In this document: in pieces, positions 1-32,215 of the stretch
Numbering within the stretch: the stretch's first letter is position 1
Layout of the letters: each line of letters begins with the position of its first letter
IMG/VR virus record: IMGVR_UViG_3300027844_000607
Location: 1 to 58,606 of that record
Origin: a virus
Lineage: Duplodnaviria; Caudoviricetes
DNA length: 58,606 nt
Strand: one strand, 5' to 3'
Notes under the pieces: model-generated
Databases searched by the model: none
What the model was told of the DNA's origin: nothing
The model's input: the letters and a program-made list of their open reading frames with translations, nothing else
Program-made: the position numbers and the translations under genes

Positions 1-399
1 TGAGGTCAACGTCAATCGGCCTTCAGCGACCAAGCCAGTATCCGAACTTGCCACGGCAGTGGAAGCCCAGACAGATCCATCGCTCGTCAATACGTTGCCG
101 GATGTACTGGGCGCTACGGTTGTCGGGGTTCCTGTTCCGGCGCCGACGAGAACACCAGCACTCGTCAACGTCGCAAGACCGGTGCCGCCTTGTGCAACCA
201 CAAGTGGCGTGTTCAACCCACCCGTAAGCGTCACGGCACCAGAGAACGATGCGGCCGCAAGAACCGTCGGTCCGGTTTTCAGCGCCGTCTCAATCGCCAC
301 CACTTCCAATTCAAGGTCAGTGATGTGCGTCGTGTAGATGACGTTACCGGTCGATTTAGTTTCGAACGATTTAATAGTTGTTGGATAGGAAGCTGCCAT
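1..399 (-). CDS. Tail-fibre-like structural protein, paralog A (runs off the window edge)
   Basis: Not in the ORF track because it is truncated. ATG at 399 reads MAASYPTTIKSFETKSTGNVIYTTHITDLELEVVAIETALKTGPTVLAAASFSG..., nearly identical to the N-termini of 431..1516 and 3421..3813. ATAAATA lies just upstream. Confidence 0.75.
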   Translation of the reverse strand, partial: MAASYPTTIKSFETKSTGNVIYTTHITDLELEVVAIETALKTGPTVLAAASFSGAVTLTGGLNTPLVVAQGGTGLATLTSAGVLVGAGTGTPTTVAPSTSGNVLTSDGSVWASTAVASSDTGLVAEGRLTLTS

Positions 400-405
400 A
401 TGCTA

Positions 406-412
406 TATTTAT
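406..412 (-). promoter_or_regulatory. T4-type late promoter (ATAAATA)
   Basis: TAGCATAAATATAGCAT-ATG; the same 17-nt leader precedes paralog B. Matches the gp55-dependent TATAAATA family. Confidence 0.7.
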
Positions 413-430
413 GCTATACTGGTTTAGTTC

Positions 431-1516
431 TTAACCGTCTATGGATCCACTGATTCCGCTTTGCCGAACCGTAGGATTGCCACCGTCACCCCACCATGTC
501 GTCGTGCCAGACGCATGTGAATACTCTAACCACGCGGCAAAATGGTATCCCGCAGCAGGGTATGTCCGCAGGTCGGCAGTAACAAAGACCAGTCTAGACG
601 CTGTTGTAATGTCGATGTTCCCCATCAACGTCCCCGTAGCCGCCGCGGTCGTGGAATCGAGTCCGACCCCGGCACTCAACGTGACGTTAGATGTGCTACT
701 CCTCGTCAGTGCTATCACTATTGCCGTCAGTTCGACTTCTGCGACCCCCACAATAAATGCGAGTTGGTTGGCTGTGCTGCCGTTCGCCTGCCGTATCGTC
801 GCGATTGTGTATGTCCAAGTGTCCGTCGCTTCTAATACGCGCATCGGTCTGCTGACACGGTTGTAATAATTCCATACAAACCGTTTAGCCATTGAGTCCT
901 CGGTCGTGGTCGTCGCCGTGGTATAAAACGTCCCGATATATCTTCGGGTGGTGGCCCCCGTTTTCACTAGGACCCCGTCCTGCGTCGTGAGGGCCGTTGC
1001 CCGTGTGGTATCGTTTGTCCACGCGACTGGCGAGTCAAACGTCACGGTTCCTGAATTATCGTAGGCAAACAAGTCATACGGTTTGGCATCCGTGAGCGTT
1101 CCCAACGCAATCGTAATTTGAGTAAAGGTTCTGATGTTCCAAGCGGATGACCCGTCATACAAGGCGATCTCATTCCCGGCGTATGGGGCAAAATAGATAT
1201 TCGTGGCACCGGTCACGTCGGCCGTTGTGACGGCGGTACCGCTTGTGAGCGTTAAGCGCCCTTCGCAAATACCAGTTAGGCCACCCGCAAGGCCGGTGCC
1301 TCCTTGTGCAACCACAAGCGGCGTATTCAATCCACCCGTAAGCGTCACTGCACCGGAGAATGATGCGGCTGCTAGTACCGTTGGTCCGGTTTTTAGCGCC
1401 GTCTCAATCGCAATTACTTCATCTTCGATGTCAGTAATATGTGAAGCGTAGATAACGTGACCGTGCGCCTTAGTCGAAAAGTTCGACTTAATAGATGTTG
1501 GGTAGGAAGCTGCCAT
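431..1516 (-). CDS. Tail-fibre/receptor-binding-like structural protein, paralog B
   Basis: 361 aa, Thr/Ala/Gly/Ser-rich, shared MAASYPTSIKS N-terminus, 'VAQGGTG' fibre motif, beta-rich C-terminal domain, late promoter upstream. Confidence 0.65.
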   Translation of the reverse strand: MAASYPTSIKSNFSTKAHGHVIYASHITDIEDEVIAIETALKTGPTVLAAASFSGAVTLTGGLNTPLVVAQGGTGLAGGLTGICEGRLTLTSGTAVTTADVTGATNIYFAPYAGNEIALYDGSSAWNIRTFTQITIALGTLTDAKPYDLFAYDNSGTVTFDSPVAWTNDTTRATALTTQDGVLVKTGATTRRYIGTFYTTATTTTEDSMAKRFVWNYYNRVSRPMRVLEATDTWTYTIATIRQANGSTANQLAFIVGVAEVELTAIVIALTRSSTSNVTLSAGVGLDSTTAAATGTLMGNIDITTASRLVFVTADLRTYPAAGYHFAAWLEYSHASGTTTWWGDGGNPTVRQSGISGSIDG

Positions 1517-1522
1517 ATGCTA

Positions 1523-1529
1523 TATTTAT
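1523..1529 (-). promoter_or_regulatory. T4-type late promoter (ATAAATA)
   Basis: 6 nt upstream of the ATG at 1516; same context as 406..412. Confidence 0.7.
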
Positions 1530-1616
1530 GCTATGTGAAGAACGGTGTTACTCGCTTGGCGTAAAGCGCGTCACGCCGACCTGATCGCCGCGATGTCTGC
1601 CATCATCTGCCTCATC

Positions 1617-2078
1617 TTACGGGGCGCCAACCGGGAACGGCTGAGACACCGCGATCATCGCGGCGTAGATGTCGTCCGCTCGCGCTTGCGTCAGGACGCC
1701 CGTCGAGGCGCAGTAGTTCAACAGCATCTCGACTTGCGGGTCTTCGGTCAGGAACGGGTCAGACGCGGCGTCATAGAGGCCGACGCCCCACGCGAGTTGC
1801 GGGTCGGTCTGTGGCCCGAGCATCGCGACGTATTCGGTCGGCGTCAAGATGTCGATGAAGTCGGTCTTCTTGATCCGCAGGACAGTCACGGGCGGCGGCG
1901 GTGATGTCCACGTCTGCGTCACTGGATCATAGATGTCCCCCACCTGCGGCAGTGGCACGGTGTTAGTCGTATCGACAAACAGATACGTGCTATCGGGTGC
2001 AATCGGCAGGTCATCGCCGCCAGACCACGTCCCATAGCACACATAATCGCTGGTTCTCATCTCCGCTACAGTACTCAT
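1617..2078 (-). CDS. Hypothetical protein, possibly tail-fibre assembly/chaperone-like
   Basis: 153 aa with 'VGDIYDPVTQTWTSPPPP', a motif typical of small tail-associated phage proteins; overlaps the upstream gene. Confidence 0.45.
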   Translation of the reverse strand: MSTVAEMRTSDYVCYGTWSGGDDLPIAPDSTYLFVDTTNTVPLPQVGDIYDPVTQTWTSPPPPVTVLRIKKTDFIDILTPTEYVAMLGPQTDPQLAWGVGLYDAASDPFLTEDPQVEMLLNYCASTGVLTQARADDIYAAMIAVSQPFPVGAP

Positions 2079-2695
2079 GCCGTCAACGCTTTCTGCGGCA
2101 CAAGAGCCGCGTGAATGTCTACCGATCCCGCGTCAAGCGCGTTCTGAATGCCGTCTGACACATGCGCTGGCGCACCCGTTAGCATCCATCTCCCGTTCTC
2201 GTGCGTGAGTTGCCCATGCAATGACCCATGAAATGGCGCAAGCGCGGTATCGGTAATGTCGAGCAAGGCTTTCTGCTCAGTCGGGAGAATACGCCGTGAC
2301 GAGCTTTGGTTCGCGTCGATGTATTTAGAAGCGCGGTCTAGCTGGATGTAGTGCCGCATGTCGGGATACTCAATGCCCCCGTCCATCGTGTTCCACTTGT
2401 GGAAATACTGATCGCCCACCGGCCAGTTGAACTTCGTCACATCGACGCAGACCGCACCACCAGCGGGGCAGTCATCCCACGCATGTTGATCCCAGCATTG
2501 TGCGATCACCTCGTACGGTGACCCCATCGGCGTGATGAGCCGCTGCGTTTCGTGCAGCCACGCATTCATGCCGATCATCCTTTGCTCTCCCACTTGCGCG
2601 AGGAGATGCGCTGGCGGGGGTGGGGCATACCCTTTCCACTCGCCGAGCCACTGCCCGTCTTCAAGGCGAAACCACGCGAAATGGCGATCAACCAT
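2075..2695 (-). CDS. Hypothetical protein
   Basis: 206-aa ORF tightly coupled to both neighbours in the same operon. Confidence 0.55.
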   Translation of the reverse strand: MVDRHFAWFRLEDGQWLGEWKGYAPPPPAHLLAQVGEQRMIGMNAWLHETQRLITPMGSPYEVIAQCWDQHAWDDCPAGGAVCVDVTKFNWPVGDQYFHKWNTMDGGIEYPDMRHYIQLDRASKYIDANQSSSRRILPTEQKALLDITDTALAPFHGSLHGQLTHENGRWMLTGAPAHVSDGIQNALDAGSVDIHAALVPQKALTA

Positions 2696-3054
2696 TAGAA
2701 CAACTCCACTAATTCATAAGTGAGCAACGTCCAGTTCGCGTTACCATTTGTAGAGACAAACGTCTGTGTCGTCGTGTTCATTCTCACACGTGCAGCGCCT
2801 TCGAGGAAATTGCCAGACGTTGAACTTGAGCTGATACCACCGAATGAAAGATAGGCCCGTGCCAGCGTGACAGCGCTCACTGTGGCCAGCGAGCTTGTCG
2901 TCCCAGTTAGCAGCTGTTCCGCTCGCTGGATGCTCGACGCCCGCACCGAATAGCTCCCCGCCGTCAGGCTGAAGCCGGTCTTGGTGTTGACTTCGACGAG
3001 CCTATTCGCAACTGGAACCTGCGTCCAGAGTTGGTTTGGTGATATGTGCTTCAT
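2695..3054 (-). CDS. Hypothetical structural (tail-associated) protein
   Basis: 119 aa, Ser/Thr-rich and beta-like, ending 'YELVELF'; overlapping start/stop with neighbours. Confidence 0.5.
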   Translation of the reverse strand: MKHISPNQLWTQVPVANRLVEVNTKTGFSLTAGSYSVRASSIQRAEQLLTGTTSSLATVSAVTLARAYLSFGGISSSSTSGNFLEGAARVRMNTTTQTFVSTNGNANWTLLTYELVELF

Positions 3055-3419
3055 GGTGTGATTCTCAGGACATGACCAGACAGAGTGATCACATTCCCAC
3101 TCGCGGCAAAGGCTTTCACTGTCAAGGCGGTGGAACCGTCGCCCAACAGGATCAACCCATCAACCACGGCCGTGAGTCCAGTCTTCGGCGTGATCGTCTG
3201 CACGATATTTTGGTCGGGTGCCGTGGCACCGCCGAATTCGAGGGTCAGCACTACGTCTGAGGCTGAACTGTTGAATGCAAACACGGTGAGCCTATCCACG
3301 ATGGTGGCGCTTGTGCCCGTCGTGTGGATAAGTGTCCCGGCGGTCGAGGTCGCCACGACCTTGATGCCTTGTCCCTGCGTGCTTGCGGAGAACGGAATGA
3401 TTGCTGTTGCGTTGGCCAT
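3051..3419 (-). CDS. Small virion structural protein
   Basis: 122 aa, Thr/Ala-rich beta-sandwich-like sequence directly downstream of paralog C. Confidence 0.5.
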   Translation of the reverse strand: MANATAIIPFSASTQGQGIKVVATSTAGTLIHTTGTSATIVDRLTVFAFNSSASDVVLTLEFGGATAPDQNIVQTITPKTGLTAVVDGLILLGDGSTALTVKAFAASGNVITLSGHVLRITP

Positions 3420-3420
3420 T

Positions 3421-3813
3421 TTAACTCATCGCCTCTACTTGTAGAATATCCAGGCCGCCCGGTGCAGGTGCGGTGCTGGCCCAGGCGGACCCGGTGCTGG
3501 TTAATAGGTTGCCGGACGTACTGGGCGCTACGGTTGTCGGGGTTCCTGTTCCGGCGCCGACGAGAACACCAGCACTCGTCAACGTCGCAAGACCGGTACC
3601 GCCCTGGGCAACTACTAGCGGCGTGTTCAATCCACCTGTGAGCGTTACTGCACCGGAGAACGATGCGGCCGCAAGAACCGTCGGTCCGGTTTTCAGCGCC
3701 GTCTCAATCGCCACCACTTCCAATTCAAGGTCAGTGACGTCTGTCAGCAGTACATAATCCCCGTTCGCTTTAGCGGGAAACGATTTAATGGATGTTGGAT
3801 AGGATGCTGCCAT
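3421..3813 (-). CDS. Short tail-fibre-like structural protein, paralog C
   Basis: 130 aa consisting essentially of the shared MAASYPTSIKS module; SD-like AAAGGA and CTAAATA upstream. Confidence 0.7.
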   Translation of the reverse strand: MAASYPTSIKSFPAKANGDYVLLTDVTDLELEVVAIETALKTGPTVLAAASFSGAVTLTGGLNTPLVVAQGGTGLATLTSAGVLVGAGTGTPTTVAPSTSGNLLTSTGSAWASTAPAPGGLDILQVEAMS

Positions 3814-3831: not shown

Positions 3832-3838
3832 TATTTAG
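3832..3838 (-). promoter_or_regulatory. Late promoter (CTAAATA)
   Basis: Intergenic, upstream of the 3813 start. Confidence 0.65.
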
Positions 3839-3843
3839 TGTCC

Positions 3844-5559
3844 CTAATCAGGACCCGAATCCACCATCCTCAACCATTCAGCAAAGCGGCCTGCCGTCTT
3901 GCCCCATCCCGGTATACTCTCTCCTTCTTGCCAGTTTGGACAATTCCGCTTGTCTTTGAATTGATTACGGGACCATCGCGTACTAACCATGTTCGTGTCG
4001 TGCCGAATATCCACATTCGGAAACTCTGAATTGAAGGTGTCCCCTCCACGCGAATCAAATCGCGCATATGGCTTCTGACTGCCCGGCTCAAACCCAGAAC
4101 GTAGATCAAACCCATCACAATCAATACGAGCGATACGCGCACGATAATGATCCAGCAACGCACTCCGATAGGCGACAAGACCAGACACTTGCTTCGTGTC
4201 GTAGTGAATAGCACGTCCATCCTCCGCAGATACCTTCCATGCATTCATGTTGTAGTAGAAGGTGTCGCGGTGCGCGGGATCGAATAAGAAGTGTGACGGG
4301 TGGTACAGCACGTCATGGTCACAGATAAACACGACATCGCAAGTCATGGTTTCCAACCCCGTCAAGAGTTGCCGCATCCACGTTTCATGCCCGCGGTCGC
4401 GTTGCACCGTCATGTTCTTCCCAAACGAGATAGGTTTAAGCGACACTGCCGCAATCGGCAAGTCCATTTCAAGCAACCGATGTTGTACAGCAATGCCGAT
4501 GTCCGTGTCATCCAACAGGTTGTCAGTCGTGTAGAGAATGCCCTTCGTTGGATTTGAGACAACTGGCGCACTGTCGATCATCCGCGGCTGCTCAGGCTGC
4601 GGCGGAGGTGCGGGAACTTCCACATCAGGCGCTCTTGATGGCACATCATGCCAGTCTGGAACCGGACGGAATCGTTCGAGCAACCAATTCAGATCATGTT
4701 TGGCTAATGGCCATTTGTTGTCTATCCACAACGCCCGAGAGTGCTTGCGTGCGCGATCAACTTGCCGCCCAGAGAGCGGGTACGGAAAGCCAAAGTCACC
4801 ACCCTGCGTGCGGAACATATGGGCGAACCACGTTTTCTTGTTGACCACATGCCGACCGCCACTCAACCATGCCTTACACGCGACTTCCACACCAAACTGT
4901 CCCCACGATCCGTGCGCTTCGTCCATGCCACCGAGATCCCAAAACCGCTGACGGTGCATGAAGAAACAGGCCCCGACGCTCGTCATCGTGTCCGCAATAT
5001 CACCCTGAGCATTCGCATGAGTCTTGAACGATCCCCAATACTGAAAGTGCATCGTCTTATCAAACCGTGCGAAGTCTGTTTTACGATTCATTCGTGGTTG
5101 CCAGAGCATGTCGCGAACCACATTCGGACCATTACATCGCTCACACTTCTCTGGTGTTGGGCCCTGATATCGGCGCCAGTCGCAGTCCGTACACAACCAG
5201 TCGAACGCGTGGAGGTTATACATGCGCGGGATGACCGTCCAGTCATAGTCACAGTCCGCCATCAGTTTGACATCAAAGCCTTCATCAACAGAACAGTGCC
5301 CGTCGATCTTCATGATGTATTTGGCGCGAGAGAGTCGAGCGCCTTCATTCATGGCGGCGCGTTGCCCGATGGACTCAGCATGATGGACGAGTCGTACCTT
5401 CGGATGATCGGGGATGACAGGATCCGCCCAGGCGCCATCCAGAATGGCGATGACTTCTGTGTCACCTTGCATGTTCTGAAGGATAGTCTCAATCGTTTTC
5501 GCCAGAAACATTTCGTTGCGGGCGGGAATGACAATGGAAAGATCGGATGCAAACTTCAT
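3844..5559 (-). CDS. Two-domain glycosyltransferase: N-terminal GT-A domain resembling ppGalNAc-T (GT2/GT27) with a CxxC/CxxC insert, Pro-rich linker, second GT-A-like domain
   Basis: LSIVIPARNE start; DGHC (DxH) motif; GACFFMHRQRFWDLGGMDEAHGSWG...KAWLSGG...AHMFR. The C-terminal domain (KGILYTTDN...DHDVLYHPSHF) is paralogous to the next two genes. Confidence 0.8.
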   Translation of the reverse strand: MKFASDLSIVIPARNEMFLAKTIETILQNMQGDTEVIAILDGAWADPVIPDHPKVRLVHHAESIGQRAAMNEGARLSRAKYIMKIDGHCSVDEGFDVKLMADCDYDWTVIPRMYNLHAFDWLCTDCDWRRYQGPTPEKCERCNGPNVVRDMLWQPRMNRKTDFARFDKTMHFQYWGSFKTHANAQGDIADTMTSVGACFFMHRQRFWDLGGMDEAHGSWGQFGVEVACKAWLSGGRHVVNKKTWFAHMFRTQGGDFGFPYPLSGRQVDRARKHSRALWIDNKWPLAKHDLNWLLERFRPVPDWHDVPSRAPDVEVPAPPPQPEQPRMIDSAPVVSNPTKGILYTTDNLLDDTDIGIAVQHRLLEMDLPIAAVSLKPISFGKNMTVQRDRGHETWMRQLLTGLETMTCDVVFICDHDVLYHPSHFLFDPAHRDTFYYNMNAWKVSAEDGRAIHYDTKQVSGLVAYRSALLDHYRARIARIDCDGFDLRSGFEPGSQKPYARFDSRGGDTFNSEFPNVDIRHDTNMVSTRWSRNQFKDKRNCPNWQEGESIPGWGKTAGRFAEWLRMVDSGPD

Positions 5560-5561
5560 AG

Positions 5562-6284
5562 TTAGTCTCGGGACCCGGGTGTTGGTGACGGCGATGCCGC
5601 AGGTGGTATCTCGTCTAGTGTAAAAGTGCCCCAGTAGGGCACGTCGTTTGTTTCAGTCCAGTTCTGACAGGTACTCTTGTCGCGAAATTTGTCCGTGGAC
5701 CAGCGGTTCGCCGTAAGGTTGTGCTTATGACGAATATCCAAATTCGGTAACGCAGACATCCACGTCCCTACGAAAAATCTGTTTTGCCACGGAAGGCGAC
5801 TCTGTTTATGCCCAGGCTCAAACCCCTTTCCGCGTGACCATGTTCCGTCTTGTGTAAACTTGATGCGTTCGCGGTAATGCTTAATCGCATCTTCGCGATA
5901 GATGCAGATGCCACTGACCTGTTGACAGTTATCAACCCACACGGCGTGCCCGTCCTCGGCACGCACTTTCCACACATTCACATTGTAGTAGAAAGTGTCG
6001 CGTGCTGTTGGTGTGAAGTCAAAGTGTGACGGGTGATAGAGCATGTCATGTTCGCAAAAGAACACGACATCTTCCGCGCAGTTCTCCAGTGCGGTAAGAA
6101 TCTGTGTAAACATTGTGAGCATCCCACGTTCTAGTGGTAACACAATGTTATGCCCAAAGTTCGGCACGGGTTTTAGTGTGACAGAGGTGATCGGTAACCC
6201 GATAGACAACAACTGTTCTCGCACACGCCGATTGATGCGTTCGTCTGCCTGATTGTCGGTGTAGTAAATAATGCCCTTCGTCAT
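5562..6284 (-). CDS. Putative GT-A glycosyltransferase
   Basis: KGIIYYTDN...FFCEHDMLYHPSHFDF; clear paralog of the C-terminal domain of 3844..5559. Confidence 0.6.
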   Translation of the reverse strand: MTKGIIYYTDNQADERINRRVREQLLSIGLPITSVTLKPVPNFGHNIVLPLERGMLTMFTQILTALENCAEDVVFFCEHDMLYHPSHFDFTPTARDTFYYNVNVWKVRAEDGHAVWVDNCQQVSGICIYREDAIKHYRERIKFTQDGTWSRGKGFEPGHKQSRLPWQNRFFVGTWMSALPNLDIRHKHNLTANRWSTDKFRDKSTCQNWTETNDVPYWGTFTLDEIPPAASPSPTPGSRD

Positions 6285-6994
6285 GGTTTCTCTTTTGGTT
6301 CATACATTGCCATAAGTTCTTTGGCGGTGCCCCAATACGGCAACTCGGTCGCTCGCCTGTCCGCATGGCGTTTACGTTTGCTGAGATAGCCTTCAAACTG
6401 TAATGCCTCTTCGGTGCCAAACACAATGCTCGCTGTCGGGGCGCTCCAGCGTTCGTGTGTCAATGTCGTGATGCCGAGATGTCCCTCAAACCGGCCCGGC
6501 TCCCCAAAATACCGTATGGGAATTTTATTAGGATTGGGATACTTCGCGAATCGTTCTTCCAACGTATCAATGAGAGCTTGTCGCGAGACGGTGAGACTCG
6601 TCATCGTACGTCGTTCGCGATGTGACATGAGTGGTGGTGTGTGCCATGTAAAGATGGACCACTTGTTGACATCATACGCAAACATATTTGGTGCAGGCTT
6701 ATAGAGATAGTGATCGGGTGAATACAGAACATCATCTTCCGCTGTGGCCACATACTCTGTCTTGGCAGCTTTGGCACCGATGAGTACTTGCTTATAGATG
6801 TTATAGACGGACCGGCCGATGTCACCGACGCAGATGTTTTCACCAAAGTCCATCGGTATATGCGATACGCTGATCAATGGCGTCTTACCAATGACGCGAA
6901 TCAGTTGCGTACGCACCCGGTCAGCAAAACGATCATTGAGAAAATTCGCAGTATAGTAGATGACGGTTAAATTGGGGATGACCAAATCACTCAT
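6281..6994 (-). CDS. Putative GT-A glycosyltransferase
   Basis: VIYYTAN...ATAEDDVLYSPDH (EDD metal/nucleotide-sugar motif). Start placed at the ATG overlapping the upstream stop. Confidence 0.6.
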   Translation of the reverse strand: MSDLVIPNLTVIYYTANFLNDRFADRVRTQLIRVIGKTPLISVSHIPMDFGENICVGDIGRSVYNIYKQVLIGAKAAKTEYVATAEDDVLYSPDHYLYKPAPNMFAYDVNKWSIFTWHTPPLMSHRERRTMTSLTVSRQALIDTLEERFAKYPNPNKIPIRYFGEPGRFEGHLGITTLTHERWSAPTASIVFGTEEALQFEGYLSKRKRHADRRATELPYWGTAKELMAMYEPKEKP

Positions 6995-7638
6995 GTCGCA
7001 TCCTTGTATATACCCTTCGTTGTGCCCCACATTTGCCGTGCGTAGATCGGTGGCGTGAGTCCGTCCGCTTCGTGATAATGCCCAAGTTTTGGATAGAACG
7101 TATACGAGGGTAGAATTTTTATGGCGGAATATTTGGCGCCATGATGACGAGGACGATTATACCACATAAACCGATCCACACAAGTAGTTAGGAGTGTGCC
7201 GCCAATGGTAAAACATGGTGGTTCGATCACGGTAGCACTCTGAATCCGTTGTTGATACGTCAGGAGAATAGGGTGATATGGCACGGTCCCGATTACTCCA
7301 TTGGCAACTCGTTCGTCATACTCAAACACCGCGAAAAAGTCCAACTCCAAAAACGACGCACCCTCAATCGTTTGCCGACAAACGGAATCCGCATCCAAGT
7401 AAATACCACCAAGGCGCAGCAGAATTTCCACTCGCGCAACATCAGCGGCCCCATCATACATCTGCTTCTTCATGAAGCGGTCGTATTTGTCGCGGTTAAC
7501 TAATCCAAAATTATCAATCGCCTGTTCGTCCCATAGCGTAAACGTAAACGACGGATTCTTCTTCGGCCATGTGTCTAACCACTCATTCGGGCGTTGCTTT
7601 GGTCCGATCCAGATCTGGTGGATGTGTGTCGGAATCAT
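6991..7638 (-). CDS. GT32 / DXD-motif glycosyltransferase (Och1/Sur1-like)
   Basis: MIPTHIHQIWIG...ADVARVEILLRLGGIYLDAD signature. Confidence 0.8.
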   Translation of the reverse strand: MIPTHIHQIWIGPKQRPNEWLDTWPKKNPSFTFTLWDEQAIDNFGLVNRDKYDRFMKKQMYDGAADVARVEILLRLGGIYLDADSVCRQTIEGASFLELDFFAVFEYDERVANGVIGTVPYHPILLTYQQRIQSATVIEPPCFTIGGTLLTTCVDRFMWYNRPRHHGAKYSAIKILPSYTFYPKLGHYHEADGLTPPIYARQMWGTTKGIYKDAT

Positions 7639-8168
7639 GTAATAGATCGACTTCCTCTATATTTCGTGACATACTGATTGACGATCTGTCGTACCGTAAG
7701 GCGTGTGCCGGTGATGTTCATGTCGCACGGCCAAGACGGAATGAGTCCAAGCCAGTGATGGAACTCGTCCTTCGCCAGCACATAACGGTAGGCATTCTCT
7801 ATAAGCAAGGGTTGCCCTTCGGCATGTTGACGCCGTAGGTAGTTGATGATCGTGTGTGGGTTGTCACCCCAATCAATCACACCCAACCGCATGATTGTGT
7901 GCTGAAGAAACTGTGAACGAATCAAACACTCCATTGTGCGCTTGTGGTGGGCGTATCGCGTGTCCGCATAGAACACCGACAATGAACTGAAATAAATCAG
8001 ATGCTTTGTCGGGTCTTGTTTCGCGAGTAAATGTGCCTCTCGTTCGTATTCGCTGTCTCGCGTTTCCTGACTGTTACTGACGCCCGATGCGAAGTAGATA
8101 CGATCTGGTCTGTCTAAGTTTGGCACATCCGCAATGGTGGATGCGATATCGCCTCGTCCAATAATCAT
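7635..8168 (-). CDS. Short NAD-dependent epimerase/dehydratase-like protein
   Basis: MIIGRGDIA, IYFASGVSNS, LIYFSS and YAHHK (YxxxK) extended-SDR-like motifs. Confidence 0.6.
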   Translation of the reverse strand: MIIGRGDIASTIADVPNLDRPDRIYFASGVSNSQETRDSEYEREAHLLAKQDPTKHLIYFSSLSVFYADTRYAHHKRTMECLIRSQFLQHTIMRLGVIDWGDNPHTIINYLRRQHAEGQPLLIENAYRYVLAKDEFHHWLGLIPSWPCDMNITGTRLTVRQIVNQYVTKYRGSRSIT

Positions 8169-9091
8169 TTAGTCGCACGTTTCTCATTGAAGGCGGCCAA
8201 GTCCGCTTTCCACGTATCCGTCCATGTTGGCACAGGTGAAAAGTGATCGATGAGCCACTCGAAATCTCGCGTACGTTGTTCCCACTTATTATTCATCCAG
8301 TAGTCAATACAGTAATGACGGCCGTCTTCTTTGTCGGCTTGATGCTCTCTATACTGTTGATTACTGAAACCATAGCCCTTCCCCTTCTTACCTTTGTGCC
8401 AATGAGCATACCACGTTTTCTTGTTGACAACAACGCGCCCACCACTGAACCACGTTTTATTTCCAATCTCTTGCGCTTCCTGCGTGAACATGCCATAACC
8501 ATCTTCTTCCATGTCTCCAATGACCGTATGCCAATGTGATGTCTTCATGAAATAGCAGGAACCCTGCCATGACATTGTATCATCAATAAGGATATCCTTT
8601 CTTTCATAGTGTCGTGATTTCCACTCCGACCCGTGTAACCCGTACTCTATATCGTGCGGCCGCTCAAACGGATTGGCAAGATACATATAGTCAATTGGTG
8701 GACGACCATCTTCAACGACGACCCATTCTTCGGGTTCCAACCGATAGCGGCGTGGAATGACAACCCAATTATCCTCGCAATCGGCTTTGAGCTTGGTGTC
8801 GTAGCCCTGATCGAGCAAACAGTGTTCGTCAATCTTCATCAGGTATTCGCCGGTTGCCAAGGAGACACCTGCATTGATGGCCGAGCGCATTCCATAGTGG
8901 CCGTGTGTTATTCCTTGATGGAGGTGGTGAACTTTGGGATGGTCTTTGGGGATAGTGTCTGGCCAGATACCGTCCAGTACAACTATGATCTCAATGTCGC
9001 CTTCAGCTTTGGCGAGTAGATCATCGATAGTTTTCTGGAGATACTGCGGACTGCGTGACGGGACAATAATGGACAATCGCGATGCTATCAT
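8165..9091 (-). CDS. GT-A glycosyltransferase, ppGalNAc-T-like (GT2/GT27)
   Basis: LSIIVPSR, KIDEHC (DxH), GSCYFM...EIGNKTWFSGGRVVVNKKTWYAHWHK; paralog of the N-terminal domain of 3844..5559; SD AAGGAG. Confidence 0.8.
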   Translation of the reverse strand: MIASRLSIIVPSRSPQYLQKTIDDLLAKAEGDIEIIVVLDGIWPDTIPKDHPKVHHLHQGITHGHYGMRSAINAGVSLATGEYLMKIDEHCLLDQGYDTKLKADCEDNWVVIPRRYRLEPEEWVVVEDGRPPIDYMYLANPFERPHDIEYGLHGSEWKSRHYERKDILIDDTMSWQGSCYFMKTSHWHTVIGDMEEDGYGMFTQEAQEIGNKTWFSGGRVVVNKKTWYAHWHKGKKGKGYGFSNQQYREHQADKEDGRHYCIDYWMNNKWEQRTRDFEWLIDHFSPVPTWTDTWKADLAAFNEKRATK

Positions 9092-9112
9092 AATAACTCA
9101 CTCCTTCGTACT

Positions 9113-9140
9113 TATTTAGAAGATCTGTCGATGCTAAATA
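9113..9140. promoter_or_regulatory. Back-to-back late promoters (CTAAATA on - at 9113-9119 and on + at 9134-9140)
   Basis: Divergent motifs facing the glycosyltransferase operon and gp22. Confidence 0.65.
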
Positions 9141-9276: not shown

Positions 9277-10641
9277 ATGAGCGAGATAGTCAACCCAGTT
9301 TCAGCGGCGCAACTGAAGCCGCGCAATCAGGAACCAACGCACCTTGGTGGTTCATCCTTTGAGGACATTGGCGGCACGGAGCTTAACGCCAAGCCGAACA
9401 CCGCAAAGGTTGCCGTCAAGGGCGTGACCACCGATACAACCATTCCCAAGTCTGTGGCTGCGGAACCAACACATCTGAAGGGCGTCTCCGAAGGGGAGGA
9501 AGCCGACGATGATGTGAAGGTTAAGTTCGACGAAGAGGACGATGACGAGGCGAAGCTCGATGAAGCTGACGATCTCGACAAAGCCATCAAGGAAGCCTTG
9601 AACGATAAGCCCATCGACGTGAAGGTCAACGAAGAGGATGATGAGGAAGACGAGGACGAGAAGAAGGCCGTCTCCGAAGGGGAAGATGTCGTTGAGAGAG
9701 ATCCGCGATCAGTCCCGGTCAAGGAAGGTAAGGACGATGAGGATGCTGTCACCGAAGACGATGACGAGAAGCCCGAATTCCTGAAGGGGAATAAGGACAA
9801 GGTCGACGAGGAAGCCGACGAGGACGAGAAGAAGGTTGATGAGGAAGCTGACGAGGATGAGGACGAGAAGAAAGCCGTCTCCGAAGCCGTCAACATTCGT
9901 GTCAAGATGCCGGAAGCGGCGCTCTTCGAGTCTGCCGGATTCAACGCCAAACAGCAGAAGAAGGTTGCGACACTCTTTGAGTCCGCGATCAAAGTCACCA
10001 CCCGTCAGGTTACTGAGAAGCTCAACGAAGCGTACAAGATTCGCACGGAGCGACGTATTGCTGAGTCTGAGCGGAAGCTGACGGAACGCCTTAACACCTA
10101 CCTTTCGGTGGTTGTTGAGCAGTGGGTCGAAGATAACCGTGTGGACGTTCGCAAGTCGTTGCGGTCGGACCTCGCGGAGAACTTCTTGGATGGGCTACAG
10201 AGCTTGTTCAAGGAACACTACATTGACGTGCCGGAAAGCAAAGTTGATGTGGTCGAGACGCTAACGACAGAAGTGGATGAGTTGAAGGCTCAGATTAACG
10301 AGCAGGCGTCTTCCAACCTGAAGTTGCGTCGTCTGGCAGAAGCCGCAAATAAGAAACGTATTATTGCGGAGTTTGCAAGAAACATGAGTGAAACGCAGGC
10401 GGCGAAGCTGGCTAAGCTCGCTGAAAATACTGACTATGTGGATGCTACAGACTTCCGTGAGAAGTTGGGTATGTTGAAGGAAAGCTACTTCGGAGTGTCC
10501 GATAGCAAGAGTGATCTGCAATCTGGTCGTCTTCCCGAAGAGGACGTGCAGATTGTGACGGAAGAGAAGTCAGGTGTGAAGAGCGAAGCCGATGCAGTTG
10601 CAGATGCGATTTCGCGTCAGGTGAAGTCTGACACGTTCTAA
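9277..10641 (+). CDS. gp22: Prohead core scaffold protein
   Basis: KVATLFESAI, YLSVVVEQW, LFKEHYIDVPESKVDVVE and LKESYF motifs; directly upstream of gp23; long acidic N-terminus. Confidence 0.92.
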   Translation: MSEIVNPVSAAQLKPRNQEPTHLGGSSFEDIGGTELNAKPNTAKVAVKGVTTDTTIPKSVAAEPTHLKGVSEGEEADDDVKVKFDEEDDDEAKLDEADDLDKAIKEALNDKPIDVKVNEEDDEEDEDEKKAVSEGEDVVERDPRSVPVKEGKDDEDAVTEDDDEKPEFLKGNKDKVDEEADEDEKKVDEEADEDEDEKKAVSEAVNIRVKMPEAALFESAGFNAKQQKKVATLFESAIKVTTRQVTEKLNEAYKIRTERRIAESERKLTERLNTYLSVVVEQWVEDNRVDVRKSLRSDLAENFLDGLQSLFKEHYIDVPESKVDVVETLTTEVDELKAQINEQASSNLKLRRLAEAANKKRIIAEFARNMSETQAAKLAKLAENTDYVDATDFREKLGMLKESYFGVSDSKSDLQSGRLPEEDVQIVTEEKSGVKSEADAVADAISRQVKSDTF

Positions 10642-10667
10642 CTAGCTAGTTAGAACAGTTGGCTTTA

Positions 10668-10674
10668 CTAAATA
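10668..10674 (+). promoter_or_regulatory. Late promoter (CTAAATA) for gp23
   Basis: In the gp22-gp23 intergenic space. Confidence 0.7.
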
Positions 10675-10731
10675 GTTTCTACGCAGTGTCAGACAGACAA
10701 GACACGCATAACTTTCAGGGAGATTAGTACA

Positions 10732-12075
10732 ATGGCAGAATTTCTGACCGAAGACGTAAAGAAGAAGTGGGCAAAGGTTCTCGATCACCCGGATCTTCCA
10801 CCGATCAAAGAGTCATGGAAGAAGAAGGTCACTACGGTGATGCTCGAAAACACGGCCCGCGAGATGCAGAAGGCGGGCGAAGTCATGACAGAAGCCGCTC
10901 CTGCCAACCAGTCTGGTGTGTTCCCGTCTGCGACGAACCTAAAGGGATTTGATCCGATTCTCATCTCCTTGATTCGTCGTGCGATGCCGAACTTGATCGC
11001 ATACGATTTGTGCGGCGTCCAGCCAATGACTGGTCCAACCGGCCTCATCTTCGCGATGAAGTCTACGTATACCACGCAGGGTGGAACCGAGGCGCTCTTC
11101 AACGAGGCTAACACTGGGTTTGCGAACTATTCGGGCGGAACCCAGAATGGTAGCGCACCTGCTGGTAATACCTCGCAGTTGGCGACTGATACTGGCGCGG
11201 GAGGTACTTACGAGTACGACTACGTTGGTGGTTCGACCACGTTGCAGGGTGAGTCATGGGGCTCAACGGGATGCACGGCCATTCCCGAGATGGCGTTCTC
11301 TATCGACAAGGTTACGGTTACTGCGAAGACCCGTAAGCTGAAGGCAGAGTATACTATCGAAATCGCGCAGGACTTGAAGGCGGTTCACGGACTCGACGCA
11401 GAGACGGAACTTGCTAACATCCTGTCAGCGGAGATTCTTGCGGAGATTAACCGCGAGATTATTCGTACGATTTACGTGAGCGCCGTCGCGGGTGCGAACA
11501 CGAACACCACAACGGCTGGTGTGTTCGACCTCGACACGGACTCAGACGGACGCTGGATGGTTGAGCGATTTAAGGGGCTCTTCTTCCAGATTGAACGCGA
11601 TGCGAACGCCATCGCGAAGGCGACTCGTCGTGGTAAGGGGAACATCGTTCTCTGCTCGTCAGATATTGCGAGTGCCCTTGCTGCTGCGGACTATCTCCAC
11701 TATGATAGCGCCTATGACGGTAAGCTACAGGTAGATGACACGGGTTCAACCTTTGTCGGTACCTTGCAGGGTCGTTACAAGGTGTACATTGACCCGTATG
11801 CTGCGATTTCCGCAGACTCTAGCACGGCTCAGCACTTCGTGGTTGGGTATCGTGGTAGCAGCCCGTATGACGCAGGACTTTTCTACTGCCCGTACGTTCC
11901 GCTACAGATGCTCCGCGCTCAGGATCCGAACAGCTTCCAGCCGAAGATCGGATTCCAGACGCGGTATGGTGTCGTTTCTAACCCGTTCAGCAACGCGGCT
12001 GGGACGAGCGATGGTTCTATCACCGCTCGCGCTAACCAGTACTACAGGGTTGTGAACGTTCGCAACTTGATGTAA
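10732..12075 (+). CDS. gp23: Major capsid protein
   Basis: DPILISLIRRAMPNLIAYDLCGVQPMTGPTGLIFAM, LAQDLKAVHGLDAE-like segment, FYCPYVPL and FQPKIGF motifs; probable maturation site VMTE/AAP. Confidence 0.98.
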   Translation: MAEFLTEDVKKKWAKVLDHPDLPPIKESWKKKVTTVMLENTAREMQKAGEVMTEAAPANQSGVFPSATNLKGFDPILISLIRRAMPNLIAYDLCGVQPMTGPTGLIFAMKSTYTTQGGTEALFNEANTGFANYSGGTQNGSAPAGNTSQLATDTGAGGTYEYDYVGGSTTLQGESWGSTGCTAIPEMAFSIDKVTVTAKTRKLKAEYTIEIAQDLKAVHGLDAETELANILSAEILAEINREIIRTIYVSAVAGANTNTTTAGVFDLDTDSDGRWMVERFKGLFFQIERDANAIAKATRRGKGNIVLCSSDIASALAAADYLHYDSAYDGKLQVDDTGSTFVGTLQGRYKVYIDPYAAISADSSTAQHFVVGYRGSSPYDAGLFYCPYVPLQMLRAQDPNSFQPKIGFQTRYGVVSNPFSNAAGTSDGSITARANQYYRVVNVRNLM

Positions 12076-12142: not shown

Positions 12143-13507
12143 CTATGGCCATGACTCTAGTAGATGATCAAAGTGCGTTTCCGCTTCGCCATAAAACTTA
12201 AAGATTGACAGCATAACAAAGGTGTTTTTTATTGATTGTAGTTTAGATGGGGTCATGGGATTCACATCATCAAAATACACGCCAATGTTATTGGCATAGG
12301 GAATGAAAAAGAAAATAAAAAACTTAAAAGCCGTCAGATAATTAAACGTGATCCTCGAATTGATTAAAATAGTGCCTCTCGCAAATTTATGTTTCATCAA
12401 AAACATGAATGTCTCCGAGGATACCGCTATGTCATACGAATCCTCTGGCCCAAGTTCCACAAATCTTCGTGACGATAAATGTATTTCAAACACTTTGTGT
12501 AGATCTGACACCAAGACCTTGAGAGAAAATTCATGTTTATTTTTTGGCAGGGTATTGTTGGTGAGCAAACTGTCATGAAACGCATAATATGATTGTTCAA
12601 GATCAGAGATATTTGAAATCGTGTTCGTGGTATGTTTAATTTCGACGGCATCATGGAGATGCGACCAATACGCGATAGACTTTTTGCTGTTCAGATGGGT
12701 GTGTTGTGCATCAAGTTCTCTGGATAAATCGAATGCCTCATTCGGCATGGGCACAATTGGTATCACATCGTTGTTCAGGTTTTTGATCGTGTCATAGGCA
12801 TGGTGAATATACTGATTGTCATTCCAATAAAAATTCTCTTCGTGTGAAAAGAACACATAGCTGGCAAACAATAAACACGACTTTGGATTGAGCGTCTGTA
12901 CGATGTATTTATTTTTTTCATCTATTAGTTTTTGCTGACCAATTGATATCTTTTGATCCCCCGGATTCCCTGCCCAGTTCGCATACGAAAATTGAAAAGA
13001 CACCATATCAAGTTTTCTATTATGTAAGTGAGGAAGGATTTCTTTTTCTAGGGCGTTGTTTACATCGACTCTTGCATCATTCACATTTAAGAAGGAATGA
13101 CCATTTTCGAATAAGCACAAGATAGAGGAATCATAACCATCAGACACAAATGAAACTATCTGGAGATCATCGATAGTCACGTTTTGGTTATGAGGCAGTT
13201 CAATGACTTGATGTCCTTGAGATTCAAGAAAATTCTTAACTTTTTTATCTACGGTTTCCTGATATAAAAACTTTGTTTTTGTATGCAGGTCTTTCAACGT
13301 AGGTATTGAAAAATGATCTGGATGCTCATGTGAGATCCAGATATAGTCAAAGTCTACGTTGTTGATATCATGAGAATTTTCACATAACAACGACCATCCA
13401 TCTTGAAAGGCCGTGCCTTTGAACCACGGGTCGCAGAGGATTTTTATTTCATTGGTTTCAATGATTAGGGAAGCATGATTCAAAAATCGTACGTTGCTTG
13501 GGTTCAT
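12143..13507 (-). CDS. MBL-fold metallo-hydrolase (UlaG/CMP-Neu5Ac hydroxylase-like)
   Basis: FLNHAS, CDPWFKGTAFQDGW and ISHEHPDH (HxHxDH); visibly more AT-rich than its flanks. Confidence 0.7.
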   Translation of the reverse strand: MNPSNVRFLNHASLIIETNEIKILCDPWFKGTAFQDGWSLLCENSHDINNVDFDYIWISHEHPDHFSIPTLKDLHTKTKFLYQETVDKKVKNFLESQGHQVIELPHNQNVTIDDLQIVSFVSDGYDSSILCLFENGHSFLNVNDARVDVNNALEKEILPHLHNRKLDMVSFQFSYANWAGNPGDQKISIGQQKLIDEKNKYIVQTLNPKSCLLFASYVFFSHEENFYWNDNQYIHHAYDTIKNLNNDVIPIVPMPNEAFDLSRELDAQHTHLNSKKSIAYWSHLHDAVEIKHTTNTISNISDLEQSYYAFHDSLLTNNTLPKNKHEFSLKVLVSDLHKVFEIHLSSRRFVELGPEDSYDIAVSSETFMFLMKHKFARGTILINSRITFNYLTAFKFFIFFFIPYANNIGVYFDDVNPMTPSKLQSIKNTFVMLSIFKFYGEAETHFDHLLESWP

Positions 13508-13608
13508 GTTGTCTATGTTAGAGAGTACACCCCGTACAGGCGGACCAACTAGCGTAGGTGAAGATCGCGAGTGATACTAAGATTATGGCCCATCGTATTG
13601 ATTGCATA

Positions 13609-15264
13609 TTATGATTTCCAAAACACATGTACAGGTTCATATTTCATAATTTTTCCATTCTCTAGTTTGAGATAATTCTTCGCTGTTGCTTTGCCGTCTT
13701 CCGTCACACGATTCGCTCCGGGCATGTTCATGAGTGCCATGAGAATAGTTTCCTTGTATTCAAACCCAAGTTCTTTTGCAATCGCAATGCTATCCTGCTC
13801 CAACGGTAGATACGTCTTTCCTACCTTCAAGTCTGCAATGTTCCAGAGCATATACCGTTCGTGGTTCAGGAAGTCATACGCATTCTGCAACGTCGGGCGC
13901 AGGAAGTGATCACGCCATTCACCGTAGGTTGTATACTTCTTATAGCTCTGGTTCTCATCCTCGCTATACGCCTCACGATTGAAATACGGTGGTGACGAGA
14001 ACACCAAGTCGCCGCGGCCCTTGAGCAGCTTGAAGGCCGGCGTCGTGTGGAAAAGCTCACTCCCAAGTTGGTACACATGCGACCGATGCTCTTTTTCTTC
14101 GTCCTTATACAACGACCCATCACCCGTCGATGACTCGATGCGTACTTTGTTATATGCGTCGGCAATAACACGATAGATACTCGTACCGTCTTTATAGAAG
14201 GCGGGATTCGGATCAGTGCCGACATAGTTCAAATGTTGCATGTCACCATTCGGTAGCTGTTGGTTGAATGACATCGCACCAATAAGGCGCCCCGCCCAGC
14301 CCGCCGAGGGATCCCACACGTTGACCGCTTGCGCCTTGACGTGCTGGAGGAACGTTTGATAAAGCAGCTTCGCGGTCAACGGTGGGTAGTTTACCGCATA
14401 CTGACACATCGAAATACGAAAGCTCCGAAACAGATTCGGAAACAACCGTTGTCCCTTGTCATAAATGCGGATATGGAATTCGTGTTCTGAATTCTCATGT
14501 TTCGGAAGAATGTTTCGACGTGTGATCAATGGCAACCAGCCGCGTGATAACGCATTACTGAATTCGTCAAACGACAACGCCATCAGAGTTTCAGTTCGCA
14601 TTTTATCATTGTAACCGGAATATTGCGTTTCTTTATTCACGGGCTTCGCTTCTAACAACAACTCTTGTTCGCCATACTTTCGTTCATGCACATGAAACAA
14701 TTCAACGAACTGGATAGCGGTGGCGGGTACCACCTCAGAGCGATGTTTCAGCGCCGTACCGCCCGTCACGGTCAATGCACACATGTAGAAGCTATCACGC
14801 AAGAAATGACGACGAGCGTACGGCAAATATCGTTTGAACAACTCTGGACTCGCGAAGAAATTGTAAATACTCCGGCCGTCATCTTTCGCCGTGTAATTGA
14901 TGCGAGTCTTGTACATCTCCGAGGCGTGCCAGGCGTTCACCGCACTCCCCGTGCTAACGTGCGTATTATGAATGACTCGCCGGTTAGTCAGTGTGTCGTT
15001 CTTCCAGAACTTCCCCGTAACAAAACCCGCCAGCTTCGAGAAGTCCTTGTCAATTTCACCTAGTGTCCACCCGCGGCGTGGCGGAATGCTCTCTTCGTCC
15101 CAAGACTTCAAGAAGGATTCCCGCATATGAAACACATATGCCTCAAACTCCTTATCTGACATAGCCAGAATATCATCGAACGTGCAGTTCACGGTCGGGT
15201 CGTCTAACAGCGGATGGAGACGTGCTATCGGAAAGATGTCGGTCGTCGTTTCAATAGCTATCAA
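13609..15264 (-). CDS. Large amino-type DNA methyltransferase (probably m4C, possibly m6A)
   Basis: SAM-binding WDPSAGWAGRL followed by catalytic FSSPPYF; 551 aa. Confidence 0.75.
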   Translation of the reverse strand: MIAIETTTDIFPIARLHPLLDDPTVNCTFDDILAMSDKEFEAYVFHMRESFLKSWDEESIPPRRGWTLGEIDKDFSKLAGFVTGKFWKNDTLTNRRVIHNTHVSTGSAVNAWHASEMYKTRINYTAKDDGRSIYNFFASPELFKRYLPYARRHFLRDSFYMCALTVTGGTALKHRSEVVPATAIQFVELFHVHERKYGEQELLLEAKPVNKETQYSGYNDKMRTETLMALSFDEFSNALSRGWLPLITRRNILPKHENSEHEFHIRIYDKGQRLFPNLFRSFRISMCQYAVNYPPLTAKLLYQTFLQHVKAQAVNVWDPSAGWAGRLIGAMSFNQQLPNGDMQHLNYVGTDPNPAFYKDGTSIYRVIADAYNKVRIESSTGDGSLYKDEEKEHRSHVYQLGSELFHTTPAFKLLKGRGDLVFSSPPYFNREAYSEDENQSYKKYTTYGEWRDHFLRPTLQNAYDFLNHERYMLWNIADLKVGKTYLPLEQDSIAIAKELGFEYKETILMALMNMPGANRVTEDGKATAKNYLKLENGKIMKYEPVHVFWKS

Positions 15265-29589: not shown

Positions 29590-29818
29590 TCTCCGATAAT
29601 AGGTGACAGACTTGTTTCAATAAACGCACGATATCGACAATTGGCTGATCACACGCCGTATTCCATCGACCCGTACTCTCATAGTATTGTATCATACTTT
29701 TCAAACGAGCGAGCGTTTCTTCTTCCAGCTTTTTATATACTTCTGCCGATGATAGGTTATCAACGACGGGTTGTACGTAATCACTCCGCGGCGTAAAAGG
29801 AATAACGTTTGCAGTCAT
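29468..29818 (-). CDS. Hypothetical protein
   Basis: MTANVIPF start overlaps the upstream stop; 3' end overlaps the next gene. Confidence 0.45.
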   Translation of the reverse strand: MTANVIPFTPRSDYVQPVVDNLSSAEVYKKLEEETLARLKSMIQYYESTGRWNTACDQPIVDIVRLLKQVCHLLSENGTANHEDKAFTAPSESRGSVRTATETHQDSGQGQEPPRE

Positions 29819-30786: not shown

Positions 30787-30792
30787 TGAGTA

Positions 30793-30987
30793 TCATCCTT
30801 TTTTAGAGTATCGGTTTTGGGCGTTGTAGCCTTTGATAATGAAACTGCTGACGCTGCTGAGTCTTTCAATCGTCTCACCCGCGCCGCCGCATTCAGGACA
30901 CGCAACTTCTCCAAGATTTCGGTAGGAGTGAACATACTGTTGGAAATGTTTTTCGCAGTCATGGCAAATCAATTCATAGAGTGGCAT
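30793..30987 (-). CDS. FmdB-like zinc-ribbon protein
   Basis: MPLYELICHDC...CPECG. Confidence 0.78.
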   Translation of the reverse strand: MPLYELICHDCEKHFQQYVHSYRNLGEVACPECGGAGETIERLSSVSSFIIKGYNAQNRYSKKG

Positions 30988-31861: not shown

Positions 31862-31915
31862 GCACTAATCTCCCATTAAAATTCTAGCCCGAAGCATTTG
31901 TTACCGTTAATTATA

Positions 31916-32206
31916 TCACAGATCGGGAGGCGGGGGAAGCTGCACGGTCACTGCGGTCATGAAAAACTTTCGCATTTCCCTCTCCACAATCTTATCGTCT
32001 CTGTCCCGCGCTTCCATATTCAAAACACACCAATCATCCATCGCCCCCTTTACCTCTCGGCTTCCCTGCCCACTTCCGGCGGGGAATGTTGAGGAGGCGT
32101 AGAACCCGTTGACGCATTCCACCAACATGCTTATTTGCATTGTGGTTGGAGGGGCGTCGTAAAAAACCCCCAACAACATAAAAGATGTGGCGATAGATAG
32201 AATCAT
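31916..32206 (-). CDS. Hypothetical exported/membrane protein
   Basis: Hydrophobic N-terminus; co-oriented. Confidence 0.45.
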   Translation of the reverse strand: MILSIATSFMLLGVFYDAPPTTMQISMLVECVNGFYASSTFPAGSGQGSREVKGAMDDWCVLNMEARDRDDKIVEREMRKFFMTAVTVQLPPPPDL

Positions 32207-32215
32207 TAACCTACG

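Follow-up and report, generated by a model that had tools for sequence, protein, structure and literature searches.

The window analysed here, the whole 58,606-nucleotide (58.6-kb) virus record IMGVR_UViG_3300027844_000607, belongs to a T4-like phage and carries a minus-strand operon of six translationally coupled genes (9091..3844) that includes two glycosyltransferases resembling the GT27 family of polypeptide GalNAc-transferases (ppGalNAc-Ts). The GT27-like family is tied to dedicated Ser-repeat acceptor proteins in many unrelated uncultured phages and some Patescibacteria, and one Ser-repeat protein is encoded in the window. The reading favoured here, with a probability of roughly two in three, is that a late operon encodes soluble enzymes that O-glycosylate the Ser-repeat protein in the cytoplasm, perhaps fibre proteins as well, giving a mucin-like brush on the particle. 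Mucin-type O-glycosylation is viewed as a eukaryotic trait. The broader proposal, that GT27-like enzymes with Ser-repeat proteins constitute a widespread mucin-type system of prokaryotic viruses and Patescibacteria, absent from cultured phages and forming a brush on a seawater T4-like phage, is tentative and given somewhat less than even odds. A full-text literature search (supplements not covered) found no publication on GT27-like enzymes or Ser-repeat acceptors in phages.

The two enzymes are a 571-amino acid (aa) two-domain protein (3844..5559, minus strand), in which residues 1-305 (4645..5559) form the type-a catalytic domain, and a 308-aa type-b protein (8165..9091, minus strand) that is 35% identical to that domain. 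The original prediction had noted DxH motifs in place of DxD, here KIDGHC in the 571-aa enzyme and KIDEHC in the 308-aa enzyme, and a GACFFMHRQRFWDLGGMDEAHGSWG...KAWLSGG...AHMFR stretch, and these are present as described. Pfam assigns both enzymes to generic GT2 alone (PF00535 Glycos_transf_2, scoring 52.3 and 43.4 bits where the cut-off is 23.3; 4.5e-11 for type b), and generic GT2 N-termini are the only matches of the 308-aa enzyme when it is searched by itself against PDB sequences. A phmmer search of the PDB with the 571-aa protein lists 17 sequences, in which ranks 1-14 are all ppGalNAc-Ts (best 3e-5), counting 8uhv, a Toxoplasma GalNAc-T3 deposited as "Glycosyl transferase". A profile built from 35 homologues of both types aligns at positions 6-263 with residues 31-288 of GalNAc-T1, which is the whole catalytic domain (E 3.2e-11), and pairs lDaHC with LDAHC, E..K.wLsGG with E..R.WQCGG, and faH with vGH (vGHvFR in GalNAc-T1). 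The match of other GT2 structures to the same profile is confined to its first ~100 positions.

The AlphaFold model of residues 1-325 of the 571-aa protein has a mean predicted local distance difference test (pLDDT) score of 90.9. Among the Foldseek matches of the type-a model in the PDB, all 29 rows listed through rank 50 are GT27 enzymes (E 1e-15 to 2e-13; TMq 0.54-0.67; identity 15-20%) and not glycosyltransferases of lipopolysaccharide (LPS), capsule or DNA. The GT27 likeness that had been proposed from motifs is therefore borne out by single-sequence search, whole-domain profile and structure. D86, H88, E225 and H247 are invariant in 35/35 sequences of both types, as are G234 and G235; the DGH motif is at residues 86-88. 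In GT27 enzymes the distal His is the third metal ligand, and the Gal/GalNAc-T motif segment reads WGGE...CGG...GH.FR. The WGGE core of this segment is not conserved: type a has WGQFGVE in its place, and type b has ..EAQE.

Judged from sequence and model, both DxH enzymes behave as GT27-like in every computed test, yet are atypical for GT27. They share with GalNAc-T1, T2, T10 and Toxoplasma GalNAc-T3 the GT-A fold, the D-x-H motif, the distal His, the E...GG pattern and an alignment of ~260 residues, as well as, by prediction for the phage enzymes, Ser/Pro-rich repeat acceptors like those in mucins. Unlike the ppGalNAc-Ts, the phage enzymes are soluble, presumably cytoplasmic, and have neither membrane anchor nor ricin-type lectin domain. 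No ricin-type lectin domain is matched by Pfam: the 571-aa protein ends in a second, predicted GT-A domain, and the 308-aa enzyme ends after its catalytic domain. There is no room for a type II anchor or stem, since the first beta strand of the modelled fold begins at residue 7 (no transmembrane predictor was run). Type a further differs from the ppGalNAc-Ts in its fused second GT-A domain and in a zinc-ribbon-like CxxC...CxxC insert (residues 123-142; 5134..5193, minus strand), found in all type-a and no type-b enzymes of the 35-sequence alignment. The linker before the C-terminal domain is Pro-rich, with pLDDT <50 at residues 307-317.

The protein acceptor is indicated by the genes that travel with the enzymes. 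Open reading frames (ORFs) beside them encode proteins of 230-1650 aa with Ser at every second position and a combined Ser and Thr fraction (S+T) of 0.30-0.64; examples of the repeats are SPSASVSPSVSPS..., SESPSESPS... and SSTPSSTPS... By a fixed criterion for a Ser/Thr-alternating repeat ORF, one accompanies the enzyme in 23 of 30 viral loci and in each case shares its strand (19 of 25 without near-duplicates). Three of the seven loci lacking one are just 4.6-6.7 kb long (L026, L027 and L001, the last a 6.7-kb fragment of the window's own phage), three are on contigs or fetched stretches that end just past the enzymes (L017, L023, L029), and the remaining locus has the enzyme near one end (L030). 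In the corresponding control, drawn from one podovirus lineage, a repeat ORF is found in 0 of 65 enzyme-less loci (768 kb), while in that lineage (72 loci) it accompanies 4 of the 4 enzyme-bearing loci that have enough flank. Prokaryotic genome contigs give a repeat ORF at 13 of 20 loci with full-length enzymes, compared to 0 of 27 that match the generic GT2 N-terminus only.

The association also holds in reverse. When viral records are selected solely for a coding stretch of (SPSASV)2SPS, 35 of the 68 searched (loci L216 and L229 lie outside these) have a full-length enzyme, and 29 of those 35 have at least two. For records at least 90% complete, the enzyme is present in 10 of 14. The reverse control yields the enzyme in 0 of 49 records, including 0 of 8 that are near-complete, and recovers the one known positive added to it. 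The pattern recurs across lineages and collections, and a protein acceptor for the GT27-like enzymes is strongly supported. Co-occurrence of the operon with Ser-rich genes across relatives, suggested beforehand as a check, is seen in both directions, but the class that co-occurs is the protein with Ser at alternate positions and not the fibres beside the operon.

In the window, the sole ORF of this class is 48263..48703 (minus strand), whose 146-aa product has ~50 globular residues followed by ~95 residues of SPSxS-type repeat that run to the C-terminus. No other of the 79 ORFs reaches its S+T of 0.44. The gene has an AAGGAG ribosome site, mixed TCN/AGY Ser codons and imperfect DNA periods of 18-42 nucleotides (nt), features that argue for selection on the protein. 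From the comparative data it is the predicted primary acceptor; Pfam recognises no virion domain in it. The gene is preceded by that of a 778-aa protein (48719..51055, minus strand), with which it is probably co-transcribed and which itself starts 17 nt 3' of a CTAAATA motif (51072..51078, minus strand). The N-terminus of the 778-aa protein matches PHROGs named cytidyltransferase (phrog_3041, 1.3e-48); there is no Pfam match, PDB sequence matches are at chance level, and hhalign against the profile of the operon's paralogous domains described below gives a probability of 0.1%.

The original prediction pointed to Ser/Thr-rich fibre genes next to the operon. Their location and a moderate Ser/Thr richness are confirmed, but what accompanies the enzymes from locus to locus is the Ser-repeat class of protein, which the window encodes elsewhere. 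The fibre-like cluster (1..3813, minus strand) consists of three paralogues with MAASYPT... N-termini (3421..3813, 431..1516 and 1..399) and four small ORFs, and has S+T values of 0.25-0.28 (ranks 2, 4, 5 and 6; the mean over the 79 ORFs is 0.144, with a standard deviation of 0.054). These proteins are possible secondary acceptors. The label "fibre" is based on the three paralogous N-termini and on one C-terminus that is 32% identical to the annotated tail spike of Pseudanabaena phage Pam5. The paralogues share a near-identical 70-residue N-terminus (MAASYPT...GGTGLA) and differ in their C-termini, which resembles exchangeable tips on a common adaptor. Another Ser-rich frame, 9423..9944 (minus strand), was rejected as a gene: it is antisense to gp22, and the plus-strand gene has Pfam and PHROG matches.

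The operon was described in advance as six coupled genes behind a CTAAATA promoter, back-to-back with the capsid genes, and this layout is borne out. Its genes are joined by 4-base overlaps, one 2-base gap and one 40-base overlap (the latter on the assumption of the listed GTG start at 7030), and they diverge from the gp22 scaffold and gp23 major capsid genes (9277..12075, plus strand), each of which is preceded by CTAAATA. The first ATG of the operon has a GAAGGAG ribosome site and lies 22 nt from the motif at 9113..9119 (minus strand); another copy (3832..3838, minus strand) is found 19 nt 5' of the first gene in the fibre cluster. The window has 18 copies of CTAAATA where 3.45 would be expected, a count that none of 100 shuffles attains. 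Ten of these copies are intergenic, in a window that is 5% intergenic, and each of the ten is 7-137 nt 5' of a co-oriented start; the starts so preceded include those of gp22, gp23, the operon, the first fibre gene, the 778-aa gene, a tail-tube-like gene and gp32. The motif TATAAATA has no occurrence in the window. Because of its enrichment and its intergenic placement 5' of co-oriented starts, CTAAATA is very probably the counterpart in this phage of the T4 late promoter. From the position of the motif before gp22 and gp23, and by analogy with T4, we infer that the operon is expressed late.

The enzyme family has 6122 matches, and most of those listed are two-domain proteins of 530-590 aa, with some of ~930 aa that have a fused methyltransferase. 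Both enzyme types and extra copies of the paralogous domains occur together at nearly all of the 30 viral-contig loci. At 6 of 6 loci annotated with PHROGs, the enzymes are co-directional with the head, portal and tail genes that surround them; the phages concerned are podo- and sipho-like and unrelated to one another. Pfam searches of ~100 neighbouring proteins at viral loci identify DegT aminotransferase, epimerase/dehydratase, UDP-glucose dehydrogenase, acetyltransferase, sulfotransferases, radical SAM enzymes, methyltransferases and more glycosyltransferases. Sulfotransferases, radical SAM/B12 enzymes and aminotransferases recur near the enzymes in loci L002-L025, and such recurrent tailoring enzymes point to heavily tailored glycans. 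A small S-adenosylmethionine-type methyltransferase stands alongside the enzymes in 16 of the 30 viral loci, in addition to its fusion in the ~930-aa forms; the window operon has no methyltransferase.

Glycosyltransferase clusters in marine T4-like phages are usually proposed to remodel host glycans, and in this case the enzymes would act on a surface polysaccharide (LPS, capsule or S-layer glycan) during infection. The generic PF00535 assignment of both DxH enzymes fits this proposal, as do the GT4, nucleotide-sugar dehydrogenase and epimerase/dehydratase genes that the window also has at 29815..34635, and a 2025 cyanophage study reads its 13 glycosyltransferases in the same way (PMC12801897). 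It is nevertheless unlikely here. No flippase, polymerase, initiating transferase or exporter is found in the annotations of the window, Pfam identifies no flippase, polymerase, initiating phosphoglycosyl transferase or ABC exporter among the ~100 neighbours at viral loci, the best sequence and fold matches are peptide-modifying enzymes, and the genes lie inside structural modules and behind the motif that precedes the capsid genes. The two-way link to Ser-repeat proteins would also be left unexplained.

The same cassette occurs outside phages. Two contigs from metagenome-assembled genomes of Patescibacteria (L111, 744 kb; L112, 917 kb) encode GT27-like enzymes, the paralogous domains, Methyltransf_24 proteins and Ser-repeat proteins 562-1546 aa in length. 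Phage genes are absent and tatC lies immediately downstream, a setting that suggests a mucin-like glycoprotein on the surface of these cells. Of two further loci with the cassette, the Anaerolineaceae one is a prophage and the PVC-group one includes a baseplate gene, so that the cassette is a protein-glycosylation module of both cells and phages. The exported product suggested by the Patescibacteria cassette favours an explanation in which the Ser-repeat glycoprotein of the phage is real but off the particle, either set free when the cell lyses or exposed on the surface of the infected cell to serve as a decoy, adhesive or superinfection block; the ~50 non-repeat residues of the window acceptor, with no recognised virion domain, could be read likewise. 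This is improbable given that the Ser-repeat proteins of other phages (230-1650 aa) are encoded among tail and head genes on the same strand, several of them with a Laminin_G_3 domain, and that the Ser-repeat gene of the window follows a gene preceded by CTAAATA. Least of all is to be said for T4-style glycosylation of modified bases in the phage DNA: although phage glycosyltransferases of several folds hypermodify DNA (reportedly the subject of Pyle et al. in 2024) and a base-modifying enzyme such as a hydroxymethylase could lie elsewhere because the contig is 33% complete according to CheckV, ThyX (TIGR02170, 8e-55) is the only thymidylate-synthase-like gene in the contig, where a PF00303 search is empty, the fold matches are peptide GalNAc-transferases, and the Ser-repeat association is left unexplained, so that it is scarcely credible.

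A number of points weigh against the glycosylation of a Ser-repeat protein on the particle. Sequence identity to GT27 is just 15-20% and TMq 0.54-0.67, and lipids, sugars and small molecules are substrates of other GT-A enzymes whose fold is similar. The Fisher p-values for the associations (3e-16, 6e-7 and 5e-11) overstate the evidence, since the loci are not phylogenetically independent. Four of the 14 near-complete Ser-repeat records (G003, G028, G036 and G060, two of which are 174 kb and 217 kb) have no enzyme at E<=1e-20, and the repeat is therefore not strictly dependent on the enzyme; these four phages may use another enzyme or carry a bare repeat. The Ser-repeat gene of the window lies ~39 kb away from the operon, not beside it as in most other loci, and the adjacent fibre proteins have no Ser repeat. 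The cassette is not virion-specific, given its cellular tatC context in two Patescibacteria chromosomes. A full-length family member is found in 0 of 50,697 cultured phage genomes: tblastn with the 571-aa enzyme gives nothing, the 308-aa enzyme gives one partial match at 31% coverage, and megablast of the operon gives no match. Four seawater RNA libraries yield contigs at least 99% identical to the window that span gp22 and gp23 in full and parts of the operon. This is compatible with transcription, but contigs of this kind carry no information on strand, start or timing, and DNA can be present in RNA libraries. Many operon bins are uncovered in these contigs and depth cannot rank genes, and nothing is drawn here from the gaps or from the lower operon figures. 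Finally, the family is known from genes and models alone, and a glycan, glycoprotein or enzyme activity has been observed for no member.

If the favoured reading of a glycosylated particle is correct, then the acceptor, the donor sugar, the order of enzyme action, the late timing and the virion location would follow a scheme that is predicted here for the window's phage. The two GT27-like GT-A enzymes, type a with its Cys4 insert and fused second GT-A domain and type b, would use a metal site of D-x-H and distal His to place the first sugar on the repeat Ser of the 146-aa protein, and possibly on S/T/P-rich stretches of the adjacent fibre proteins. The three putative GT-A domains with ExD-type motifs, the GT32-like enzyme and the short-chain dehydrogenase-like protein would then extend or tailor the glycan. 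Because the operon and the acceptor gene both lie behind the motif that also precedes gp22 and gp23, the glycoprotein would be made together with the particle, most likely decorating it as a mucin-like brush; the virion location is suggested by these timing motifs and by the placement of the enzymes within structural modules in other phages. Of the original prediction, the GT27-like and protein-directed character and the late-type promoter stand, while the likely acceptor is a different protein.

Until now, to our knowledge, reports of virion glycosylation by phage-encoded enzymes concern actinobacteriophages, whose enzymes are unrelated to these. Freeman et al. (2023, Cell Host Microbe) are said to have placed those glycans on the C-termini of capsid and tail-tube proteins. 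In both systems phage glycosyltransferase genes lie with structural genes and their products modify virion proteins, by report in the actinobacteriophages and by prediction here, but the acceptor would be a dedicated Ser-repeat protein here, as against capsid or tail-tube C-termini there. Homology to the actinobacteriophage enzymes is not indicated, with no full-length tblastn match in the 50,697 phage records (mycobacteriophage content of the set not checked).

The Ser-rich repeat glycoproteins of Gram-positive bacteria (GspB/Fap1, with GtfA/GtfB and accessory Sec) have alternate-Ser tracts that are O-glycosylated in the cytoplasm by dedicated enzymes, and the initiating enzymes have the GT-B fold. 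The phage system would share the long alternate-Ser tract as acceptor, but its initiators are GT27-like GT-A enzymes and not GT-B. No GT-B initiating pair or accessory Sec gene is present among the annotated genes of the window, in which one GT-B-type gene (29815..30786) is unlinked to the operon. GalT1 (5hea), a follow-on enzyme of the GspB/Fap1-type pathway, is one of the weaker PDB matches of the DxH enzymes. The chlorovirus capsid enzymes, such as PBCV-1 A64R (2p6w), are also soluble, virus-encoded GT-A proteins and act on a virion protein; 2p6w is a weak Foldseek match of one of the paralogous domains (rank 34, E 6e-5), but the likeness is at the level of the general fold only, and the virus realm, acceptor and linkage are different.

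If the reading holds, the brush would be a new class of phage surface structure and could change how marine virus particles adsorb, stick, are grazed and decay. In the prokaryotic world, its enzymes would be the closest relatives of those that initiate animal mucins, with a possible evolutionary link to animal mucin glycosylation. The 146-aa substrate and the two soluble enzymes would make a testable enzyme-acceptor pair, and compact soluble enzymes of this kind would be of use in glyco-engineering.

In the favoured reading, the remaining operon proteins would act after initiation. Three paralogous domains, here called par, were predicted from their EHD, DHD and EDD motifs, and alignment agrees: they are the 240-aa par B (5562..6284, minus strand; EHD), the 249-aa par C (6281..7030, minus strand; EDD) and the C-terminus of the 571-aa protein (3844..4545, minus strand; DHD), which is 47% identical to par B. 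E78 is near-invariant and D80 invariant. The par domains match no Pfam or PHROG family, and indeed PHROGs contain no family for any of the six operon proteins. The par profile has a single, chance-level match to PDB sequences (E 0.09), and at least 3185 relatives in metagenomes are unnamed or "hypothetical", with a Pfam domain in 0 of the 120 listed. The par B model (pLDDT 88.9) has weak Foldseek matches to GT-A proteins in the PDB (best E 6e-6), and its best match in BFVD is an uncharacterized protein (1.3e-14), followed by rows that, where named, are viral GT-A glycosyltransferases. VIA-align gives a tie between GT2-type enzymes and IspD-type cytidylyltransferases (Z ~12.8). A Gly-rich loop is the sign of nucleotidyltransferases, and the par N-terminus reads IIYYTDN, without that loop. 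We read the par domains as an undescribed GT-A family.

The GT32-like protein (215 aa; 6991..7638, minus strand) matches PF04488 Gly_transf_sug (1.1e-8; 36.1 bits, cut-off 23) and has a DXD-type DAD motif. Together with the three par domains it would extend the chain. The 177-aa protein (7635..8168, minus strand; YAHHK) has no Pfam, NCBIfam or PDB sequence match above chance level. The ESM Atlas, taken as a lead only, gives a feature score of 0.97-0.99 and TM 0.85 to PF01370 clusters that are mostly viral, and homologues of the protein adjoin glycosyltransferase genes in two other loci (L119, L121). From these predicted structures it looks like a Rossmann-only relative of the epimerases/dehydratases, a mini short-chain dehydrogenase/epimerase-like protein, and likely modifies a nucleotide sugar.

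Apart from gp22 (PF25623, 6.5e-53) and gp23 (PF07068, 2e-142; both also with PHROG matches), the window encodes gp46/47-like nuclease subunits, the gp55 late sigma factor, gp32, helicases, a primase, UvsX, ribonucleotide reductase and ThyX. The gp23 capsid protein is 58% identical to counterparts in Pelagibacter and Methylophilales T4-like phages. At least 15 metagenome runs on seawater or marine samples, dated 2017-2025, contain near-unchanged DNA (97-99% of sampled words), and one of them may itself be the source of the record. The second sugar cluster (29815..34635, minus strand) comprises a GT4-type glycosyltransferase, a shortened nucleotide-sugar dehydrogenase, a 304-aa unknown with CTAAATA before its start, and a dTDP-glucose-4,6-dehydratase/epimerase-like gene; it could supply donors for the operon enzymes. 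Two further genes lie between gp23 and the gp46/47 genes (12143..15264, minus strand), one of which lies in a patch of low GC (0.40) and encodes a 454-aa protein of metallo-beta-lactamase fold, while the other encodes a 551-aa protein with a weakly DNA-methylase-like C-terminus. In the RNA libraries, the gp22 contig begins at 9158, 9159 and 9164 in three of the four, ~20 nt 3' of the plus-strand CTAAATA at 9134..9140, and in one of the three a sequencing adapter is directly 5'; this is a weak hint of a transcript start. Contigs from the four RNA libraries also differ within the gp22 coding region (9423..9944) by inserted or skipped stretches at ~9499-9868, so the length of this scaffold region differs between strains.

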